Virus record (IMG/VR): IMGVR_UViG_2693429557_000018
Length of the DNA: 8,225 nt
Source: a virus
Lineage: Duplodnaviria > Heunggongvirae > Uroviricota > Caudoviricetes
Strand: one strand, 5' to 3'
The notes beneath the pieces are model-generated. The model was given only the letters and a program-made list of their open reading frames with translations, searched no databases and was not told the origin of the DNA. Of the stretch, positions 1 through 8,225 are shown piece after piece. Within the stretch, counting starts at the first letter, position 1; every line of letters begins with the position of its first letter. Position numbers and translations under genes: made by a program.

Positions 1-65
1 GGTAGTGTCCGCTATTGCCAGTACACCTCATACTGAGGGTACTACGTGATAAGAAAGTAGTTACC

Positions 66-1025
66 ATGAAGATTATCGATAACCTCACCTTTGAACGGGC
101 TAATGAGAAGTTATCGCGGAATGGTATAGCTAATCGTATCCGTAAGGACATTACCATTGCTCAGGATGATTACATTACTAACCTCTTCCCGAAGATGCTG
201 AAATGCGGTCACTGTGGGGGCAATATTGCAATTCACTATAATCATGTACGAACTAAGTATGTTATTTGTCGTAACAGGGAAGAAAAGAAGATCTGCGATG
301 CTAAATCTATCCAGTACATGAGAATTGAAAAGAACATTCTACAGCTTGTCAAAAATGTAGACTTCAATAAATTGATGATGGAAGGTAAGTCGGATTCAGA
401 TTCATTGCTTGCATCATTGCGAGAAGAGTTAAGTACTTTACAGAAAGAGGCAGAAACCTATCAGGTTAAAATTAATGAACGTAAGGCAGCAGGTAAGAAA
501 GCCTCGTTACCATTAATGACGGGTTTAACTGAGGTACAGGATAGAATTGAAGAAATAGAATCTGAGATATTAAATTCAAAGAACATCAAAGAAATCCCTG
601 TATTTGATTTCGATATTAATAAAGTACTTGATCCATTGAATGTCGAGTTACGTGCAAAGTTACGGAAAGAAGTAAGATTAGTACTGAAATCTGTTAAGTA
701 CTGGGTTTTTGAAAAGCGTATATTTGTACAGTTGGAATACTTCAATGATGTCCTATCCCATACGCTTGTGATTGATAACAAGCGGGGCGGGGGTGAAGTA
801 CTACATGAGATCGTAATCTCTGAAACAAGCGGCGAGCGTGTCTACACTGTCAATGAAGAGGGCAAAACCGTTTTCATTGCCTCCGTTACATCTGGTACTG
901 ATATGTGGTCGCTTGCCATTAGCCGTACCAAAATACTTGATGATGTTGGATTGTATCTTAATCTTCTCAAGCGTGAAAAATTTGAGATCATTGTTAATGA
1001 AGATATGATTGATTGGATGGATTAA
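66..1025 (+). CDS. Large serine recombinase, C-terminal zinc-ribbon plus coiled-coil portion; N-terminal catalytic domain not encoded in frame in this window (split, frameshifted or truncated gene)
   Basis: Translation has the recombinase-type zinc-ribbon motif (FPKMLKCGHCGG ... YVICRN ... KKICD, i.e. CxxC...C...C) followed by a long coiled-coil-like stretch (LREELSTLQKEAETYQVKINERK...), the C-terminal module of large serine recombinases. First ATG is at 66 (a TTG at 15 has no RBS). There is an in-frame TAG at 3-5 and stops in the other two forward frames at 34-36 and 47-49, so no upstream reading frame continues into this ORF. Confidence 0.6.
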   Translation: MKIIDNLTFERANEKLSRNGIANRIRKDITIAQDDYITNLFPKMLKCGHCGGNIAIHYNHVRTKYVICRNREEKKICDAKSIQYMRIEKNILQLVKNVDFNKLMMEGKSDSDSLLASLREELSTLQKEAETYQVKINERKAAGKKASLPLMTGLTEVQDRIEEIESEILNSKNIKEIPVFDFDINKVLDPLNVELRAKLRKEVRLVLKSVKYWVFEKRIFVQLEYFNDVLSHTLVIDNKRGGGEVLHEIVISETSGERVYTVNEEGKTVFIASVTSGTDMWSLAISRTKILDDVGLYLNLLKREKFEIIVNEDMIDWMD

Positions 1026-1140
1026 AAGCTAATGAGAATTTATGGTCTTGTAGAATGAATTATGCGAGTTAATATTTGAACAATATATCTACGATGTCGA
1101 AATCTAACGGCATTGTAGATAGAGCAATAAAAGAGGGATT

Positions 1141-1230
1141 ATGAATTTTGGATATAACTACGCACCCGATGGGTTTAAGATTTCCGTGCAAAATACAGCA
1201 AATCATTTATATCAGCGTGTGTTAGAATAG
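1141..1230 (+). CDS. Small ORF (29 aa, MNFGYNYAPDGFKISVQNTANHLYQRVLE) of unknown function
   Basis: ATG at 1141 is preceded by a strong Shine-Dalgarno-like AAGAGGG with about 5 nt spacing; stop TAG at 1228-1230. Too short for the supplied ORF track. No similarity recognised. Confidence 0.2.
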   Translation: MNFGYNYAPDGFKISVQNTANHLYQRVLE

Positions 1231-1320
1231 TCAAGGGTAAAATTAACTTTTTTGACTTTTCAACGTTAAACCAGTACCATAGCGTCATTCACTAACGAAT
1301 AGGAGCGATGAAACCATGAG

Positions 1321-1722
1321 ATGAATTCTAAAGAGAGGATTGCCAAAATGCGTAAGAAAGAAAATAAAGCAAAAAAAGAAAAATTCCGTCAATTTTTCCC
1401 TGAGAATTATGATATTGGGATCTCATTGAATGAAGAGAATCAATTAAGGCTTTTTTCAAAGCGGAATGATTCTCAAGATGAGAGCTTATGCAAGTACGAA
1501 TTTTCCAACAAAATTAAAGTTCAGTACATTTTTTTGCCGTATTCTTCTGAAATTCAAGTTATAACAGATGAGTTTCCGCTAACGGAGGCAGGCTGTCAGG
1601 AGTGTACTCAAGCTTTCAAACATCCAATATCAATGGAACTAATTGAAGAGATAAAAGAAGCAAAATGTTCAGTTACTGGACTTGTCATTTATTCGAAACC
1701 TATACTAAAACTTATTAGCTAA
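1321..1722 (+). CDS. Hypothetical protein (133 aa) with a lysine-rich N-terminus
   Basis: Intact ORF on the same strand as its neighbours; AGGAG at 1301-1305 upstream of ATG 1321 (an alternative ATG at 1348 has GAGAGGA upstream). No recognisable motif. Confidence 0.5.
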   Translation: MNSKERIAKMRKKENKAKKEKFRQFFPENYDIGISLNEENQLRLFSKRNDSQDESLCKYEFSNKIKVQYIFLPYSSEIQVITDEFPLTEAGCQECTQAFKHPISMELIEEIKEAKCSVTGLVIYSKPILKLIS

Positions 1723-1798
1723 CACATCCAAATTGTTACGTTTTAAGTACTCCCTCACTAAATACTATAAAGTTGAATGTGAATGGGGGTACTTCAAA

Positions 1799-1972
1799 AT
1801 GGAATGGTTTACTAAATTACTTTACGAGATAGTAGGCTTTGTACTTTACATCTTTCTGATAATCCCAATATATATAGTGCTCATGTTTTTATCTATGATT
1901 TTAGTACTATTGCTTTCCCCATTAAAAATCAAATCGATAAATAAATACGTAGTAAGAAAAATGAAACGCTAA
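1799..1972 (+). CDS. Small hydrophobic (membrane) protein, about 57 aa
   Basis: The ORF track gives 1733..1972, but 1733 is a TTG with no RBS; the first ATG is at 1799 (MEWFTKLLYEIVGFVLYIFLIIPIYIVLMFLSMILVLLLSPLK...), preceded by a G-rich stretch. The product is almost entirely one or two predicted transmembrane helices with a basic C-terminus. Confidence 0.35.
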   Translation: MEWFTKLLYEIVGFVLYIFLIIPIYIVLMFLSMILVLLLSPLKIKSINKYVVRKMKR

Positions 1973-2082
1973 AAGTTTTGGTGCTATACTAATAGTATCA
2001 GAACGATAATGCGTTTTGCCTTCCGCTCCAGCTTTGAACATAAATAATATAGCGACAATAAATTTCCTTTTTAATTAAGATT

Positions 2083-2110
2083 GCCTCTCTTGCGAGAGAG
2101 GTATCTTTTT
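2083..2110 (+). terminator. Candidate rho-independent terminator
   Basis: Hairpin with 7-bp stem CCTCTCT / AGAGAGG (2084-2090 / 2095-2101) and 4-nt loop TGCG, followed immediately by TATCTTTTT; lies between the 1799..1972 ORF and the next gene. Confidence 0.5.
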
Positions 2111-2160
2111 AATTTGGATTTATAAATACAGTATACAAATACACCTATAAGGATATAGAA

Positions 2161-2346
2161 ATGAAAAAAGTAACTTTAAAGGAACGCAAACATCATGTAG
2201 TAACCGCACGTCTTAATGACGATCAAGTACTTGTACTTAACCAGCTAATTAGTAGTGGGAAGGTACAGAAAGATTCATTATCAGCCTGTGTTCAGTACTT
2301 AATTAATCAGTACATGATTTTACAGGGCGGTGGTAATGAAGAATGA
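2161..2346 (+). CDS. Small DNA-binding protein, ribbon-helix-helix-like (CopG/Arc/MobC-type fold predicted)
   Basis: 61-aa ORF with good RBS (AAGGA, 7-nt spacing). The pattern of a basic N-terminus, a short beta-strand-like segment (HHVVTARL) and two helices (DDQVLVLNQLI; SLSACVQYLINQY) is typical of RHH regulators and antitoxins. Assignment is from sequence pattern only. Confidence 0.5.
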   Translation: MKKVTLKERKHHVVTARLNDDQVLVLNQLISSGKVQKDSLSACVQYLINQYMILQGGGNEE

Positions 2347-2638
2347 CTTTGATTTAGTACAATATTTTGATGATTACACAATAGTAGGGGATATGGATTA
2401 TCACTATTTCTATTGTGTGAAGTATCAGGAAGGTTCATTAGAAGCACATTATGAACGAATTGGTGATCCAGAAGTATTAGGTACTATTACATGGAATGGA
2501 AATTACCTAATCGACGGATTACCAATGGTAATGTTTGTACTGGCTGCTGAAGATGAACATAAGGAATGTTTAAACCGTTTGCTAATCGTATGTGAGAAGG
2601 CGAGGGATGAATATAGGCTAAATGCTACTGGCCTCTAA
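2336..2638 (+). CDS. Hypothetical strongly acidic protein (about 100 aa), translationally coupled to the upstream RHH-like gene
   Basis: ATG at 2336 overlaps the end of the upstream ORF (stop 2344-2346) in a different frame; a GTG at 2330 is an alternative start. By hand count about 19 Asp/Glu versus 8 Lys/Arg. No recognisable motif. Confidence 0.5.
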   Translation: MKNDFDLVQYFDDYTIVGDMDYHYFYCVKYQEGSLEAHYERIGDPEVLGTITWNGNYLIDGLPMVMFVLAAEDEHKECLNRLLIVCEKARDEYRLNATGL

Positions 2639-2692
2639 GTAGTAGCAGACGCGATCACATGGAGTGACGCGATAACAACAAGGACGTTTGAT

Positions 2693-3247
2693 ATGAACCC
2701 TAAAATCACTTGGAGATTAATTCCAAATTCAAAACATTACTACGTATCTGAAAATGGCGATGTTTACAATGATAAAACAAAACAGTATATAGCTACGAAA
2801 AACCCATCTAATGGATACAAAAAAGTTTCTATTAATGGCAAATCACTATATGTACATGTTTTGGTTTGTACTTTATTCAATGGTGCTAAACCCATTGGAG
2901 GAAGATACACTGTAGATCATATCGACCGCGATAAAATGAATAACAAAGCAAAAAATTTACGTTGGGTAACTCAGAAGGTTAATAATTCCAATAGAAAGCA
3001 TAAAGGTACTCGTACTCAAAAGCTTACTCTAAAGCAATGGTTAATGATTGTTGGAGAGTACCTTAAAGGACAATTATCTCAATATGCAATCACTAAATGG
3101 TTTTTAAATCAAACTGGTATTAATATTTGCCCTCAGAATATAGGTAAGTTATTCAAAGGTACTACCTATTCAAAATGGTACACAACATATCTTACGAATA
3201 AGCAAAGACAAAGAATACAAAGCCTAACCATTCAACGTAAACCATAA
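2693..3247 (+). CDS. HNH homing endonuclease (NUMOD4-like N-terminus plus HNH_3-type nuclease motif), free-standing
   Basis: N-terminal WRLIPNSKHYYVSENGDVYN (NUMOD4-like), central GYKKVSINGK...YVHVLVC...TVDHIDRDKMNNKAKNLRWVTQKVN (HNH of phage homing endonucleases), basic C-terminal tail; RBS AAGGA 8 nt upstream of ATG 2693. Confidence 0.8.
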   Translation: MNPKITWRLIPNSKHYYVSENGDVYNDKTKQYIATKNPSNGYKKVSINGKSLYVHVLVCTLFNGAKPIGGRYTVDHIDRDKMNNKAKNLRWVTQKVNNSNRKHKGTRTQKLTLKQWLMIVGEYLKGQLSQYAITKWFLNQTGINICPQNIGKLFKGTTYSKWYTTYLTNKQRQRIQSLTIQRKP

Positions 3248-3250
3248 AAA

Positions 3251-3274
3251 ATGCCAGTATTCCAGTACTGGCAT
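3251..3274 (+). terminator. Perfect 9-bp inverted repeat hairpin directly after the homing endonuclease gene; weak terminator candidate
   Basis: ATGCCAGTA (3251-3259), loop TTCCAG, TACTGGCAT (3266-3274), 4 nt after the stop codon; followed by CTATTC, which is not a clean U-tract. Confidence 0.3.
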
Positions 3275-3368
3275 CTATTCAAAACTCAATGGCAATGAAG
3301 CCAAACTTATTAAATGGCCTGTAATCACTACGGGTCACGATTAATTAATTTATACAGGATTATTTATC

Positions 3369-3830
3369 ATGGCAAAAACCTATTCAACTTTTGATAACAG
3401 AAACATAAAAGCACTAATTAGCCAGTACAAGCTATATAAAGATATCCCATGCGAAGACATCAAGAACATCATGAAGGACTCAGTAGCTAAACTTAAAGTG
3501 AGAGATAAGATTAGTGTATATGATGTGTTTGCAGTATTGAGTAATGAAGATGAATTACGGAATGATTTACTATTCAATACTATCAATGCTATTAAAGTAC
3601 AACAGAATAAGAAACAAGTAAAAGAACGTATGATCAGGTACTATGGGGCAGCGATCACGGATGCAGCAAAACGAATAGAGCAGTATATGTTGGCACACCC
3701 AAACGCACTGCCAGCACCAGTATATGGACAAAGAACACTAACATATAAAGAGTTTGGTAAACTATTGGAACTACAAAAACAAGGTGACTTTATTGATGAC
3801 ATGATCGAGTACTTAAAGGGCTTGCGTTAA
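3369..3830 (+). CDS. Hypothetical protein (153 aa)
   Basis: Intact ORF with ATG at 3369 and AGGA-containing upstream region; no recognisable motif. Confidence 0.55.
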   Translation: MAKTYSTFDNRNIKALISQYKLYKDIPCEDIKNIMKDSVAKLKVRDKISVYDVFAVLSNEDELRNDLLFNTINAIKVQQNKKQVKERMIRYYGAAITDAAKRIEQYMLAHPNALPAPVYGQRTLTYKEFGKLLELQKQGDFIDDMIEYLKGLR

Positions 3831-3840
3831 TTGTAACTTA

Positions 3841-3923
3841 TTACGGCATATTACGGCATGGATGTATGCCGTAATACGGCAAAAAAAGCCCCTGAAACCC
3901 GCTATTTACCATCAATACGGCAA
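3841..3923. repeat. Cluster of TACGGCA-core repeats (iteron-like): two direct TTACGGCAT copies, one inverted copy forming a 9-bp hairpin, and two AATACGGCAA copies
   Basis: TTACGGCAT at 3841-3849 and 3851-3859; inverted ATGCCGTAA at 3866-3874 (loop GGATGT); AATACGGCAA at 3873-3882 and 3914-3923; A7 run at 3881-3887. Read directly from the sequence. Confidence 0.6.
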
Positions 3924-4293
3924 CTAAGTATAGAGATACGAAATCCATTCCATTTCATTCCATGTATTTCTTTCTCTATCAGTATTCCAAGAAACTGTGA
4001 CTTGCGTCACGAATACTACTCGTCGTGAACTCCTCGTAGTATTGGTTAGTAACGTTGCGTTTTTCTCGCCAGTACTCGAAAACCCGCAAGGCGTTACTAC
4101 TCGCTTTGCTCGATAGATGTTAGTACAGCAAATGAAGTACCTAAAGTGAATTGGTAAGTACGACATGCCCCGCCAGTTCCACAACTCTCGCTCTGGTCAT
4201 TTCCACTACTATGATGCTATTGGATAGCTACATAAAGTACTGGATCAAGTAGGCATTTTTTGTGTACAAAGAGGGAATTAAGAGAGGGATACC

Positions 4294-5037
4294 ATGAACA
4301 GAAAACAATTCATCCAGTCGCATGGTGCTACTTGTAGTAACTGGACTTGGAGTTGGTCATTTGTGAACCACGACAAGAAAATGGTTATCTTTGGTGCATG
4401 GGATGTACAAAAAGAGCAAGAAAGATCAGTCATTCTGAGGGAGCGGTGGAAAACCAAAGTTGTGGAGGGAAAGGAAAGAAAAAATCTTGGATATATTCAA
4501 GCTATTGAACACATTCAATTGATAGCTGAAGGTTATGAGCTTTACACGTTTGATATGGAGCAGGGACGAAACGATGAGAATAGAGATGTAGCTGTTATCA
4601 AACGGTTCACTCCAAAACTTGAAAAACGTTACCTTCGGAAAGAAGGAACAGTTTGGTATGCAGACTTTTTACCTAATCCATTTCCAGATGAAATTACCTC
4701 ACCTGAAAACTACGCTGAGGGTGCAAAAAAGCAAGTTACAGTAAACTCCTACGAGCGTGATCCAAAAGCACGACAGGCTTGTATTGACCATCATGGTACT
4801 TCCTGCGGGTGTTGTGAGTTTAACTTTGAGAAAGTCTATGGTGAACACGCCAAGGGCTTTATACACGTTCATCATATCAAACCGCTACACACAGTAGGCG
4901 AGGATTACGAGGTAAATCCAATTACTGATATGGTTCCACTTTGTCCAAACTGTCACGCAATGGTACATCGCGGTAACGAAGTATTAAGTGTCGAAAGTTT
5001 AAAAGCACTGTTGTTTAAAGACAGCAATAAAATTTGA
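4294..5037 (+). CDS. HNH-family nuclease with an uncharacterised ~160-aa N-terminal domain (candidate restriction/defence nuclease)
   Basis: C-terminal HNH signature CIDHHGTSCGCCEF ... HVHHIKPL ... NPITDMVPLCPNCHAMVH (Cys-rich zinc site, His-His, Asn, terminal His); strong RBS AGAGAGGG 5 nt upstream of ATG 4294. The N-terminal region (QSHGATCSNWTWSWSFVNHDKKMVIFGAWD...) is not recognisable to me. Confidence 0.8.
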   Translation: MNRKQFIQSHGATCSNWTWSWSFVNHDKKMVIFGAWDVQKEQERSVILRERWKTKVVEGKERKNLGYIQAIEHIQLIAEGYELYTFDMEQGRNDENRDVAVIKRFTPKLEKRYLRKEGTVWYADFLPNPFPDEITSPENYAEGAKKQVTVNSYERDPKARQACIDHHGTSCGCCEFNFEKVYGEHAKGFIHVHHIKPLHTVGEDYEVNPITDMVPLCPNCHAMVHRGNEVLSVESLKALLFKDSNKI

Positions 5038-5050
5038 ATTTATTTTAGAC

Positions 5051-5079
5051 TTGATACGACATACTTGAAAAGTTATGAA
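5051..5079 (+). promoter_or_regulatory. Candidate sigma70-type promoter for the 5120..5593 gene
   Basis: TTGATA (5051-5056), 17-nt spacer, TATGAA (5074-5079), about 40 nt upstream of ATG 5120. Pattern match only. Confidence 0.25.
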
Positions 5080-5119
5080 TACAATATGCTTTAAATTAGA
5101 CATGTAAGTTGAGAGAAAA

Positions 5120-5593
5120 ATGAGCATAACAACAATAGCAGCTACATATAAAGATGTGTTAACTATTGCTTTTTCGGCGTTGTCATTTATTATTGCATGT
5201 ACTTCCTTATACTTCTCCGGTAGGGCAGCATGGCATGATAGATCAAGGCTAAAAATAACAGCTGACCTCGTCTACGAGTCTTTTGATGAGGAACCTTATA
5301 AAATCGAGGTGATAGTGATCAATGTTGGTAGGCGTGATGCAGTTTTGGAAGGGATGCTTTGCCATTATGAAAAAGGCATTAGGAGCCATTCATCTCCAAA
5401 AGAGAGCATTGTTATTAAAGAAAAGCAAAGAAAAAAATTTGAATTGGTAAGCTCAGACTTAGTCACGATAGATAATGAATGTGATATTTGTCATTTAGAA
5501 GATATAACTATTTTAGATGTGGAGGGGAATGAACATAAAATCCCTAACTCTCACAGACTCATTGCATTACTTAAGCAAGATAAAAAGACTTAA
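5120..5593 (+). CDS. Membrane-anchored hypothetical protein (157 aa; one N-terminal transmembrane helix)
   Basis: Intact ORF 82 nt downstream of the HNH nuclease gene; N-terminal hydrophobic segment (LTIAFSALSFIIACTSLYF), then a soluble domain with a CDICH motif; GAGAG upstream of the ATG. Confidence 0.55.
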   Translation: MSITTIAATYKDVLTIAFSALSFIIACTSLYFSGRAAWHDRSRLKITADLVYESFDEEPYKIEVIVINVGRRDAVLEGMLCHYEKGIRSHSSPKESIVIKEKQRKKFELVSSDLVTIDNECDICHLEDITILDVEGNEHKIPNSHRLIALLKQDKKT

Positions 5594-5632
5594 GAATAAT
5601 ATTTTTTGGAATGTAAGGTAAATGTTAGATGC

Positions 5633-5673
5633 CACTATAGATTGAGGGTTAGAACTACTAACCCACTATAGGG
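5633..5673 (+). promoter_or_regulatory. Two copies of a T7-class phage promoter core (CACTATAG / CACTATAGGG) flanking a 7-bp inverted repeat
   Basis: CACTATAG at 5633-5640 and CACTATAGGG at 5664-5673 (identical to T7 promoter positions -7 to +3); between them GGGTTAG (5646-5652) / CTAACCC (5658-5664) form an inverted repeat with loop AACTA. The -17 to -8 region does not match T7 itself. Confidence 0.2.
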
Positions 5674-5849
5674 TTTACGAGATGATAAGAATGGAATTTA
5701 ACACCTACGATGGTGATATATATTACTTCCTCTATTTATATAGGAGGTACGAAAGGGGGAGTACTTTAATGAAGACCTTATAAATCTTAATGTTGAGATG
5801 TTAGTTATAGCGGTGAGGATACCCCACCGTCTATTGGGAGTTGTGGACT

Positions 5850-6518
5850 CTAATTAGAGAAAACGAATAAGTTATTCATGTCCTTTTTCAAGGTTGCATG
5901 TGCTTCTATTAAACTATCAAATGTATCTACTAATAACTTTCCATAGCTGACATTGTAATGATATCTATCATGAATGTCATTTATATCAAAACTTATCGCT
6001 TCCCTCAATGTTCCTAAAGCAATTTGATTACTGAAGAAATAATTATTGAATATAGCTTCATCTTTTGGCGATACTTTCCAAAAGGTAAGTGATTGCAATT
6101 CGCTTTTTAATGAGGCTAACTTAATGTTTAATAGATCGATAACTTCTCGTTCAGTTTTAACTAAATGTGCGAAATTTTTTGGTTCTATATCTGGTTCAGT
6201 ATTGTTAAGGTTGCATATATTTTCATATGTTTTCAACATCTCCAACGAAAAAAGATCGCAATTAGTCCAGAACTTAGTAACTTGATTTAAAGCATTTTCC
6301 TTTATTTTAGTTTGAAACCAATTTTTAGCGTTCCATGCTGCATATAGGGCTGCTCCAGCCATAATGAGATTGGCAATAGAACTAACCCAGTCACTAACCG
6401 ATCCCCACTCGAAACCTTCAGAACCAACAAAGAGTGATTTTATTAGTACTAAAATTACAACAACCAGTAATACTGCTACGGTCGATAAAAGAACGATATT
6501 TAATTTTCTACAATCCAT
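5850..6518 (-). CDS. Hypothetical membrane protein (222 aa; two N-terminal transmembrane segments, helical C-terminal domain)
   Basis: Intact minus-strand ORF, AT-rich; N-terminus LLSTVAVLLVVVILVLI plus a second hydrophobic segment VSSIANLIMAGAALYAAW. Convergent with the 5120..5593 gene. No recognisable catalytic motif. Confidence 0.55.
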   Translation of the reverse strand: MDCRKLNIVLLSTVAVLLVVVILVLIKSLFVGSEGFEWGSVSDWVSSIANLIMAGAALYAAWNAKNWFQTKIKENALNQVTKFWTNCDLFSLEMLKTYENICNLNNTEPDIEPKNFAHLVKTEREVIDLLNIKLASLKSELQSLTFWKVSPKDEAIFNNYFFSNQIALGTLREAISFDINDIHDRYHYNVSYGKLLVDTFDSLIEAHATLKKDMNNLFVFSN

Positions 6519-6592
6519 CGAAAGTAGTTCCTGAACGCATTAAAGGGGCAAATACTTTACCATCCGAAACACAATCAAGTACACTACCCGTT

Positions 6593-6645
6593 CACGTACT
6601 GCTCACATGTTGGGTTTGTTATTTTGTTGGGGTGAGCAGTACGTG
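6593..6645. repeat. Perfect 14-bp inverted repeat with a 25-nt loop containing a direct GTTGGG repeat
   Basis: CACGTACTGCTCAC (6593-6606) and GTGAGCAGTACGTG (6632-6645) are exact reverse complements; loop ATGTTGGGTTTGTTATTTTGTTGGG. Lies 6 nt beyond the stop of the 6651..6962 gene, at the AT-rich to GC-balanced transition. No adjacent U-tract on either strand. Confidence 0.7.
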
Positions 6646-6650
6646 TATCC

Positions 6651-6962
6651 TCAGAAGGGTAGTTCCCCCTGATCACAGAACCAATCACCTTCTTCACTGC
6701 TTTGATTCATCCGGTACTCAGCAGATAGATATGCTAACCCATCAATAACACTTATTAGTGGTGTTTCACAGGTAAGTACAAAACAATCTCTCTCTATAGT
6801 ACCTAACCAGTATTCCCTGTACTGATTCTGGAAGAATACCCTATCCCCATAATGAAATTCTGTTAGTGCAGATCCCCAATAACACACGGTTGCCCAGCGA
6901 CCGTTATGTGAGAACTTCTGAACCCCTCGCGTAATGGATGGATCATAGCCGTCTTTGCTCAT
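6651..6962 (-). CDS. Hypothetical protein (103 aa), probably SOS (LexA) regulated
   Basis: Minus-strand ORF with strong RBS (GAGGAGGG, about 6 nt spacing) and a near-consensus LexA box 22 nt upstream of the ATG; visibly higher GC than the upstream cargo. No recognisable motif in the product. Confidence 0.6.
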   Translation of the reverse strand: MSKDGYDPSITRGVQKFSHNGRWATVCYWGSALTEFHYGDRVFFQNQYREYWLGTIERDCFVLTCETPLISVIDGLAYLSAEYRMNQSSEEGDWFCDQGELPF

Positions 6963-6983
6963 TTGTTACCCTCCTCTATGTAT

Positions 6984-7003
6984 TACTGTATATATGTACA
7001 GTA
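6984..7003. promoter_or_regulatory. LexA (SOS) box, gammaproteobacterial type
   Basis: TACTGTATATATGTACAGTA = CTGT-N8-ACAG, 19 of 20 matches to the E. coli consensus TACTGTATATATATACAGTA; sits in the promoter region of the 6651..6962 minus-strand gene and in the divergent intergenic region. Confidence 0.7.
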
Positions 7004-7072
7004 TTGCAGTCAGTTTCCCAAAAATCCAGCACCCCTTTGTTTACCACTTTGAATGATTAATTCTATTGTAAT

Positions 7073-7089
7073 GATCAATAAAATTGATC
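7073..7089. promoter_or_regulatory. GATC-containing palindromic operator-like site (GATCAAT-aaa-ATTGATC), with a third related half-site downstream
   Basis: Perfect 7-bp inverted repeat with 3-bp spacer at 7073-7089; AATGATCAAT is repeated at 7070-7079 and 7113-7122; three GATC sites within about 47 bp, upstream of the 7155..7706 gene. Confidence 0.3.
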
Positions 7090-7154
7090 TATTTAATTGC
7101 CAATGTTTTAAAAATGATCAATTATCAATAACTTAAAGCGTAACGAGCAAAGTT

Positions 7155-7706
7155 ATGAACATTGATAATTGGGCAATACCGATAACAAGTTTGGGTGGTC
7201 AGTTGCTGGGGGTTGAGTTGGTCAGCCATGTAGAACGCGAGGGAATCAGGCAGATCGGCCTATGGGAAGAAGAAGTACTTCATGGGCAACTAATGCTTAT
7301 TGAAAGCAAGGCGGCATGGTTCAGGGATAACGGTTTGTATTGTGTGATTACTACTGGCCGTGGTGAACCATACGAGTACTTACCATTCCTTCGGCAGATG
7401 ACAAGGGATATGAAAGTACATAACCAGCAGTGGCTTGATGATCTCGGTGTACATGGTGGTTCTGCTATTCCTCTGGTTACAGGTGATTTCGAGGTTGCCC
7501 GATTAAATAGAAGGTACACAGAAGAGAACATTGACCGTCTGATCTTTCCAGTACTCATAAAAAGCATTCGCCAGTACTGCGAGAAGGTGATCGTACCCGT
7601 CAGAGATAAAACGTATTACCCAATTCTCAGAGAGGCCGGTGTATGGGCGGTACAGGGAGAGTTCAGGCCAATGCGTTTTGAGCAATGTGAAAAATTAATA
7701 GGATAA
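7155..7706 (+). CDS. Degenerate EAL-like domain protein (183 aa), probably catalytically inactive
   Basis: Motifs resembling the EAL fold in the right order: GVELVSH in place of the EAL motif, LDDLGVHGGS resembling DDFGTGYSS, GVWAVQGEFRPMRF resembling the QG-x-x-F-x-P C-terminal motif. The domain is shorter than a canonical EAL domain and key residues look substituted. Pattern match by eye only. Confidence 0.5.
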   Translation: MNIDNWAIPITSLGGQLLGVELVSHVEREGIRQIGLWEEEVLHGQLMLIESKAAWFRDNGLYCVITTGRGEPYEYLPFLRQMTRDMKVHNQQWLDDLGVHGGSAIPLVTGDFEVARLNRRYTEENIDRLIFPVLIKSIRQYCEKVIVPVRDKTYYPILREAGVWAVQGEFRPMRFEQCEKLIG

Positions 7707-7711
7707 CAATA

Positions 7712-8074
7712 ATGAAAAAATTACTAATTGGGTTACTGATTGCCCTTAGTACTGGATGTACTACTACGCACAGCTTCATGGATAAAGCTTACGTTGGCTA
7801 TGTAGATGACAAGGCCGTAGTACTGTTTGATGCAGGAACACGTAATGGGGTGAAGTACTACCGTCCTCAGTTCCAGAGTGATTGCGGTCGCATCTATAAC
7901 AAGATCTATCATGATGACAATACAAGTACTGGATGCCTCATACGAGATTCCCGCATTGCTGAACTACATCCCTATAGAGAGCATGTAAGTAAGGTAGTAC
8001 CACATCAGACCGATAGTGTTCACGATTGGTTAGAAGGGGTCAATTCACCATCCCATATCCTCGACAATCTATAG
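7712..8074 (+). CDS. Probable lipoprotein (120 aa)
   Basis: Signal peptide MKKLLIGLLIALSTGC with lipobox-like LSTGC (Cys at +1); starts 5 nt after the EAL-like gene stop with AGGAT RBS, so probably in the same operon. Confidence 0.65.
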   Translation: MKKLLIGLLIALSTGCTTTHSFMDKAYVGYVDDKAVVLFDAGTRNGVKYYRPQFQSDCGRIYNKIYHDDNTSTGCLIRDSRIAELHPYREHVSKVVPHQTDSVHDWLEGVNSPSHILDNL

Positions 8075-8081
8075 GGTACGT

Positions 8082-8225
8082 ATGGGAAAGGTAATGGTGA
8101 TTTTGTTAGTACTGGCTGGGGTACTCTTCAACATTGCAGGTGAGGATGCACCCCAGCCACAGTACACGGACAATGAGTGGATTTGCCCCTATATTTCCAG
8201 ACATCTGTTATCACTTAACCCATTA
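8082..8225 (+). CDS. 3'-truncated ORF with a hydrophobic N-terminus (signal peptide or membrane anchor)
   Basis: ATG at 8082 (second in-frame ATG at 8094) starts 7 nt after the lipoprotein stop; translation MGKVMVILLVLAGVLFNIAGEDAPQPQYTDNEWICPYISRHLLSLNPL runs open to the window end. Confidence 0.4.
   Translation, partial: MGKVMVILLVLAGVLFNIAGEDAPQPQYTDNEWICPYISRHLLSLNPL

Follow-up and report, generated by a model that had tools for sequence, protein, structure and literature searches.

What is the function of a small phage gene that stands behind a near-consensus SOS box and is followed by a gene for a membrane protein? The question is raised by a stretch of viral DNA of 8,225 nucleotides (IMG/VR record IMGVR_UViG_2693429557_000018, Caudoviricetes), which is referred to below as the window. 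The small gene, p103, encodes a protein of 103 amino acids (aa), and the next gene on the same strand, p222, encodes one of 222 aa; their positions are given in Table 1. A sequence-only reading of the window had proposed that p103 is controlled by LexA, and had compared the two genes with SOS-induced toxin, lysis or bacteriocin-type modules and with prophage-induction modules. Based on the comparison of p103 with its relatives, SOS control of the gene is established as far as sequence allows, and the conserved C-terminal peptide of the protein is the main functional clue to p103.

The LexA box and the p103 family

The 103-aa open reading frame (ORF), the near-consensus box and the strong ribosome-binding site ahead of the gene are all present as the sequence-only reading had described them. 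The box (TACTGTACATATATACAGTA) differs from the consensus TACTGTATATATATACAGTA at one position; it is the sole match in the 8.2-kb window, and no match was found in 200 shuffles. A probable sigma-70 promoter, for which two candidate arrangements can be read, overlaps the box; a consensus promoter scanner did not call this candidate. Concerning the second arrangement, the CTGGAT(C) block is found 20 nt ahead of TACTGT in most close relatives, and the phage homologs show a TTGAC(C/T), 18 nt, TACTGT arrangement.

The proposed regulation by LexA is strongly supported by comparison: in nearly all members of the family, across several types of phage and several genera, the box occupies the same place. 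Within the first set of 11 loci, which come from six genera, all 11 have a CTG-N10-CAG box 34-43 nt before the start codon, with diverged flanks, and the p103 box is the only or the best box in each 20-kb locus. The box persists in members that share only about 30% identity (AACTGTATATAAACACAGGT at −32 and TACTGTGTATATAAACAGTA at −42). Two subfamilies can be followed in IMG/VR, where the background rate is 0.015 per equal-size window. In the p103 subfamily a box that matches at 15 or more of the 20 positions is found at −26 to −45 in 36 of the 39 distinct upstream regions; of the other three, one has a point mutation in the box, one has half a box and one belongs to a gene that is only partial. 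The phage subfamily (PHROG 2100) has a box in 56 of 59 distinct regions, either at −36 to −42 (20 regions) or 550-620 nt upstream, heading an operon (36 regions). Because its position is conserved across the whole protein family, the box of the window is far beyond chance.

The same arrangement is seen in named phages. Salmonella phage SE1 (P22-like), the plasmid-prophage SSU5 and Serratia phage BZS1 have a 17-18/20 box at −34 to −37, which stands behind a TTGAC(C/T) −35 element. In Cartapus and Klebsiella ST13-OXA48phi12.1, two P2/186-like phages, the homolog comes third in its operon, behind a 62-aa gene and dinI. The operon follows replication gene A directly and opens with a perfect box, at the place where phage 186 carries its LexA-controlled p95-tum-orf97 SOS operon. 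Both phages (L009:5468-5900 and L034:1990-2425) have a separate 62-aa gene and a stand-alone dinI, where phage 186 has a fused Tum, and Cartapus has a second, partial box (TGTATACAG) directly after the first. The published list of the Salmonella SOS regulon contains no member of the family. The strength of the comparison makes this member of the SOS regulon callable from sequence alone.

The predicted core of p103 comprises five beta strands and a helix (residues 72-91), with a grand average of hydropathy (GRAVY) of −0.46. The sequence-only reading had found no recognisable family for the protein. This stands for Pfam, NCBIfam and PADLOC, of which no model matches p103, and does not hold for PHROG, where profile 2100, of unknown function, matches residues 25-91 (E 4.8e-9); p103 and the members of the phage subfamily are homologous (hhalign 97.4%, E 9e-12). 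Structure prediction, which had been suggested as a check, gave the beta-plus-helix core and a disordered tail, and comparison of the predicted structure found no fold relative. The family is small, with 21 clusters in 5.8 billion proteins and 37 representatives in 1.84 billion. Its hosts are serine-integrase prophages, P22-like phages, SSU5, P2/186-like phages and Serratia phages; the family is also present on a non-phage island that carries a tyrosine integrase (L013), and next to a HigBA-like pair (L030). In the reading that we prefer, a LexA-repressed promoter and one small gene make up a self-contained p103 cassette, which travels among the temperate phages and islands of Enterobacterales. 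On a 1.2-kb metagenome contig (L029:700-1202) the box and a distant p103 homolog are bracketed by inverted copies of ATATATCCGATATATTGATATATC, a hint that the cassette may move as a unit.

The C-terminal tail and its candidate docking partner

Residues W94, F95, Q98, L101, P102 and F103 are invariant among the close homologs, and the last 10 residues hold six of the 16 invariant columns. The ending Q-x-E-L-P-F-COOH is kept even where the cores have drifted to 25-30% identity. Two endings account for 92 of the 99 distinct full-length sequences of the superfamily, QxELPF in 43 and N[FYL][SP]LF (with an optional final D or E) in 49, and seven have other ends; the N[FYL]-type tails belong to the phage subfamily and the Q-x-E-L-P-F tails to the p103 subfamily. 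The same patterns are found at the end of just one of about 2200 other ORF products from those loci.

Peptides of this kind are known from proteins that bind the sliding clamp of the replisome. The clamp motifs are a pentapeptide, Q-phi-x-L-F (QL[SD]LF), and a hexapeptide, Q-phi-x-L-x-L, in which positions 1, 4 and 5 are the most important, and the validated Escherichia coli hexapeptides include the C-terminal QVELEF of Pol III alpha, QLSLPL of Hda and QLVLGL of Pol IV (bioRxiv 10.64898/2026.05.27.728225). The late activator MuC of phage Mu binds the clamp via QHDLF and a C-terminal QPDLF (PMC12867686), which shows that such peptides are in use among small phage proteins and that there is some tolerance at position 2. 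Each residue of the p103 ending QGELPF, apart from G2, is seen at the same position in one of the E. coli hexapeptides listed above. Like p103, the proteins with a clamp motif (Pol III alpha, Hda, Pol IV, Pol II, UmuC and MuC) carry a short, often C-terminal peptide with Q1, L4 and a last F or L, and many of them are SOS-induced, as p103 is predicted to be; UmuD2C is presented in one account as a damage checkpoint working through the clamp (PMC4045847). Two features set p103 and its relatives apart from these proteins: of the motif positions in QGELPF, Q1, L4 and F6 fit and the glycine at position 2 does not, and the phage subfamily has Asn in place of Gln. The core domain of p103 is unrelated to that of any known clamp partner.

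Based on these comparisons, p103 may be a phage accessory protein, induced in the SOS response, whose tail docks on the sliding clamp, a tentative assignment to which we give slightly less than an even chance. The broader proposal, that PHROG 2100 and the relatives of p103 form a widespread, undescribed LexA-controlled family of phages and islands whose C-terminal peptides would dock on the beta clamp or another replisome hub, is likewise tentative and is put below an even chance. The tail is conserved across all phage types and hosts, and the cassette is found amid different induction circuits, in a non-phage island and next to a toxin-antitoxin pair; both observations argue for a conserved host target rather than a phage repressor. 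SOS-controlled phage genes and clamp-binding peptides are already known, and the literature that was searched holds no SOS-induced phage family built on such a peptide; the works found on mimics of the tail of SSB (single-stranded DNA-binding protein), LexA antirepressors, 8xMP and SOS, prophages and DnaN do not describe this family.

The membrane-protein gene, the hairpin and alternative readings

As the sequence-only reading had it, the next gene on the same strand is AT-rich and encodes a membrane protein. The first N-terminal helix of p222 is strongly hydrophobic and the second less so; in the AlphaFold2 model the two form a helical hairpin, behind which comes a four-helix bundle. The N-terminal hairpin is conserved and contains a FEWGSVSDW motif; the cytoplasmic four-helix bundle is hypervariable. 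No matches to p222 were found in Pfam, NCBIfam, PADLOC or PHROG, and a fold search returned generic four-helix bundles only. Genes of the p222 type follow p103 on the same strand in the window and in Leclercia, Enterobacter ludwigii, E. bugandensis and Phytobacter (loci L011, L013 with three paralogs, L016 with three, and L018), and E. ludwigii and E. bugandensis have three tandem paralogs each. Homologs without p103 or a LexA box are present in serine-integrase prophages of E. coli and Pectobacterium, and in Kosakonia by PAAR and Tlde1. The family occurs in arrays of two or three paralogs and together with 8xMP (PF24838). A near-invariant anchor, a hypervariable C-terminus, arrays, 8xMP and the type VI neighbours PAAR and Tlde1 make up a pattern typical of conflict or immunity genes. 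Judged from these sequences, p222 is an independent polymorphic cargo family.

Proteins of a similar design are found at the end of other SOS operons. In Cartapus the p103 homolog is followed by an unrelated helical protein with one transmembrane (TM) segment (gp47), and the SOS operon of phage 186 ends with Orf97, which has two TM segments and is annotated in its record as blocking 186 infection. Taken with the p222 loci, gp47 and Orf97 make an anchored helical protein at the end of a phage SOS operon a recurring, facultative feature. A role of the anchored protein in exclusion or abortive infection is plausible.

The perfect 14-bp hairpin noted between the two genes is also present. The spacer of 132 nt between p103 and p222, folded as a stretch of 135 nt, reaches −43.2 kcal/mol (z = −3.9 against shuffled sequence). 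The hairpin was considered as an intrinsic terminator and rejected: its loop has 25 nt, there is no T-run and the scanner calls no terminators. It has no match in Rfam. In relatives a stem-loop after the p103 stop codon recurs, and the stems differ wholly in sequence yet are always perfectly paired. In 1.3 Mb of fetched sequence we found 34 distinct hairpins, with stems of 7-23 bp and C/A-rich, G-poor loops of 16-37 nt; the loop contains an invariant ACAAACC and reads approximately CCAACAAACCnACCCA. A stem is carried by 57 of 214 ACAAACC sites, against about five expected by chance. The hairpins are almost confined to the loci of serine-integrase prophages and islands and are not found in P2-, P22- or SSU5-type loci; in all eight loci with gene calls the hairpin lies just past the stop codon of a co-oriented cargo gene. 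The hairpin may be a 3′-end or processing element of the mRNA, it may present a loop to a protein or small RNA, or it may mark a cassette boundary.

Concerning the target of the tail, the main rival is mimicry of the C-terminal tip of SSB, through which p103 would dock in the SSB-Ct pockets of ExoI, RecQ, PriA, RecO or chi and block or recruit these proteins. SSB-Ct, DDDIPF, is described as a hub for many partners (PMC5872125). The acidic, disordered tail of p103 shares with SSB the end [DE]-[IL]-P-F-COOH, here [DE]-L-P-F-COOH; the tip with ELPF matches SSB-Ct at four of six positions, and some tails of the phage subfamily (MDFDEDF or QFDDDF) resemble the MDFDDDIPF of SSB. However, SSB has nothing that corresponds to the conserved Gln at −6, the conserved Trp-Phe is not an SSB feature either, and most tails of the phage subfamily are N[FYL]SLF, which lacks both Pro-Phe and the acidic triplet. 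Also, no oligonucleotide-binding (OB) fold is predicted for p103 and there is no match to the SSB model of Pfam. Both this Gln and the N[FYL]SLF tails speak for the clamp, and SSB mimicry is considered quite improbable. It is also unlikely, to a lesser degree, that the tail is a degradation tag or a contact to a phage partner and that p103 has another role, such as that of a DinI-like modulator of the SOS response acting on RecA or LexA. In favour of such a role, p103 is small, acidic, predicted to be damage-induced and phage-borne like the DinI/PsiB-type modulators, and its homolog adjoins dinI in the P2-like phages; but it has neither sequence nor predicted fold in common with them and no match to the DinI model of Pfam, and two divergent versions of the tail both fit the clamp grammar, which would be unexpected for a degron.

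Other readings bring in the neighbouring genes. p103 and one or more membrane proteins could form an SOS-triggered system of superinfection exclusion, abortive infection or toxicity, with p103 as regulator or adaptor and p222 as effector or sensor. A p222-type gene follows p103 in 13 of 43 distinct IMG/VR loci and is never found upstream or on the opposite strand, and anchored proteins end the SOS operons of Cartapus and 186 as well. The remaining loci, about 70%, have no p222-type gene, though; distant members are monocistronic or adjoin the HigBA-like pair, p222 homologs occur without p103 and its box, the two genes have separate ribosome sites with a strong hairpin between them, and p222 has no defence-system match and is homologous to neither gp47 nor Orf97. 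We regard a joint module as rather improbable. The toxin, lysis or bacteriocin module of the sequence-only reading is not supported: p103 is soluble and acidic, and colicin, immunity and lysis genes are absent from the window, as are small hydrophobic toxin peptides. SOS colicin and lysis operons and the type I toxins (TisB, DinQ, HokE, SymE) share with this locus LexA control and a membrane product in the same unit, whereas p222 is an anchored four-helix bundle of 222 aa and not a short hydrophobic peptide. We rejected a colicin or bacteriocin SOS operon in view of the single box and the absence of toxin, immunity and lysis domains from all window proteins, and a type I SOS toxin of the TisB, DinQ or Hok kind (a hydrophobic peptide of under 60 aa with an antisense RNA) in view of the length and hydrophilic character of p103 and the lack of an Rfam match. 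A close parallel is the SOS operon of coliphage 186, in which a LexA box covers the promoter and the first and last genes encode a small soluble and an N-terminally anchored protein, respectively; family members occupy this very slot in Cartapus and ST13-OXA48phi12.1. This, the small size and predicted LexA control of p103 as a prophage protein, and a related E. coli prophage in which no cI or cro is annotated, would agree with p103 being a LexA-controlled antirepressor or induction trigger, like Tum of 186 or the Gifsy antirepressors. Yet p103 is not similar to Tum (BLASTP E 2.1) and has no DinI domain, p222 is not related to Orf97 or gp47, and the operon of the Cartapus type already has a Tum-like gene and dinI. 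The family is found in phages that have Tum/DinI or a cleavable repressor (P22-like phages and SSU5 are among its hosts), on the non-phage island L013 and next to a toxin-antitoxin pair. This distribution speaks against a dedicated induction switch, and the conserved tail points to a host target and not to fast-evolving repressors. The prophage-induction module proposed earlier is not supported, and we regard an antirepressor as very improbable.

If p103 is a clamp-docking protein, as we prefer, its mode of action could be as follows. In undamaged cells LexA would occupy the box that overlaps the core promoter, and upon DNA damage LexA cleavage driven by RecA* would free p103 transcription, as the comparison of loci suggests. 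p103 would then accumulate in the cytoplasm, and its tail could fill the hydrophobic cleft of DnaN and compete with polymerases III, II, IV and V and with Hda for the clamp; alternatively, the tail could tether the p103 core to clamp-loaded DNA. Either route would bias replication, translesion synthesis or re-initiation toward the element, which might gain from an arrest of host forks, from fewer mutations in the phage genome or from a change in initiation like that seen with overproduced MuC. The hairpin after the p103 stop codon would serve as a 3′ punctuation element, and p222 would be optional cargo that may be expressed by read-through. P2/186-like, P22-like, SSU5-like and serine-integrase phages would, if this is true, inject a clamp competitor or adaptor into the host damage response, and the proteins that compete for the sliding clamp in damaged cells would be joined by one that a phage encodes. 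This competition governs fork arrest, mutagenesis and re-initiation, and so bears on prophage biology and on the mutagenesis that antibiotics induce in Shigella, Salmonella, Klebsiella and E. coli. The tail would also be a natural ligand of the clamp cleft, comparable with antibacterial leads.

The prophage setting and neighbouring genes

The prophage setting suggested by the sequence-only reading was confirmed. The exact 103-aa protein is encoded by hundreds of Shigella sonnei assemblies, e.g. 53G (HE616528), and window bases 31 to 8177 are 99.9-100% identical to S. sonnei loci. The S. sonnei segment begins with a large serine recombinase (644 aa) and is flanked by yeaG (PrkA kinase) on one side and a phage packaging and head module (TerS, GpA-type TerL, portal, S78-capsid fusion) on the other. 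Both ends of the window are termini of insertion sequences (IS): bases 1-30, which are not present in the intact S. sonnei recombinase gene, and bases 8177-8225, which are an IS2 end. The IS end at bases 1-30 truncates the recombinase of the window to its C-terminal 336 codons. Other S. sonnei copies have additional IS21, IS1 and IS3 insertions, one of them inside the terminase gene. The S. sonnei prophage is a decayed, IS-cut remnant beside yeaG. A megablast search of the region gave a single partial E. coli match and no phage or plasmid match apart from the IS ends, and scans of the window for Rfam families (E <= 1) and tRNAs gave no matches.

Related elements of about 31-36 kb are found in Leclercia, Enterobacter, Scandinavium, Phytobacter, Pseudescherichia and rare E. 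coli, and also among IMG/VR viral contigs. The stretch from the recombinase to TerS is their variable cargo region, which contains HNH and GIY-YIG nucleases, DUF3800, an OLD-like nuclease, Hcp and membrane proteins; p103 lies at its TerS-proximal edge, oriented toward the integrase. One such prophage of about 35.6 kb splits ybhA in E. coli ESBLEC_MG48 (L027/L028; NZ_CM132639.1, ~3122404-3158021). It has genes for a serine recombinase, cargo, packaging, head, tail and lysozyme, and its annotation includes neither a cI/cro-type regulator nor a replication gene.

Table 1. Positions of the features of the p103 locus, of other genes of the window and of related features in other loci (locus numbers precede the coordinates)
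Feature	Position	Strand	Remarks
p103	6651..6962	−	103 aa; PHROG 2100 superfamily; soluble, acidic, pI 4.6, 12 kDa
Disordered C-terminal tail of p103 (EEGDWFCDQGELPF)	6654..6689	−	Residues 92-103; predicted local distance difference test score (pLDDT) ~61
Clamp-binding-like peptide QGELPF	6654-6671	−	Last six residues of p103
LexA (SOS) box	6984..7003	−	19/20; box start 41 nt and box end 21 nt before start codon
Probable sigma-70 promoter, overlapping the box	6985..7029	−	Read from sequence
Promoter candidate 1	7013-7008 and 6990-6985	−	CTGACT, 17 nt, TACAGT
Promoter candidate 2	7029-7024	−	Conserved CTGGAT block; TACTGT as −10 element
Ribosome-binding site GGAGG	6970..6974	−	7 nt before ATG at 6962
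Hairpin after p103	6645-6632 / 6606-6593	−	14-bp perfect stem CACGTACTGCTCAC / GTGAGCAGTACGTG; 25-nt C/A-rich loop with ACAAACC
Second, weaker predicted stem-loop	6523..6589	−	Partly kept in Leclercia; without T-run
p222	5850..6518	−	222 aa; membrane-anchored; 32% G+C; own AGGA ribosome site
p222 family in other loci	L013:10747-13044; L016:10914-12742; L026:6001-6669
Further hairpins	L013:11504-11543; L015:13234-13292; L016:11544-11583; L018:10536-10581; L021:3661-3699; L026:5884-5919; L027:25423-25472; L116-L163 (many)
Truncated serine recombinase	15-1025
HNH nuclease genes (two)	2693-3247; 4294-5037	+
157-aa ORF	5120-5593	+	Single N-terminal TM helix
Palindromes upstream of 183-aa gene	7052-7130
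183-aa gene	7155-7706	+
120-aa ORF	7712-8074	+	Lipoprotein signal LSTGC

Concerning the other cargo genes of the window, one of the two HNH nuclease genes is of the homing type (NUMOD4/HNH_3) and the other resembles type IV methyl-directed or phosphorothioate-directed restriction enzymes. The 157-aa ORF is convergent to the p103 operon and is kept at the equivalent place in Scandinavium (L017) and Phytobacter (L018). The 183-aa gene, divergent from p103, begins with an ELV-type degenerate motif and has a weak resemblance to the C-terminal half of an EAL c-di-GMP phosphodiesterase (NF008617, E 2.7e-5). Upstream of it are repeated AATGATCAAT/TGATCA palindromes containing GATC, and a block, TTATTGATAATTGATCATTTTTAA, is conserved in E. 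coli, Scandinavium and Phytobacter; it may be an operator or a Dam-sensitive site. The 120-aa ORF with the lipoprotein signal adjoins the 183-aa gene in several relatives.

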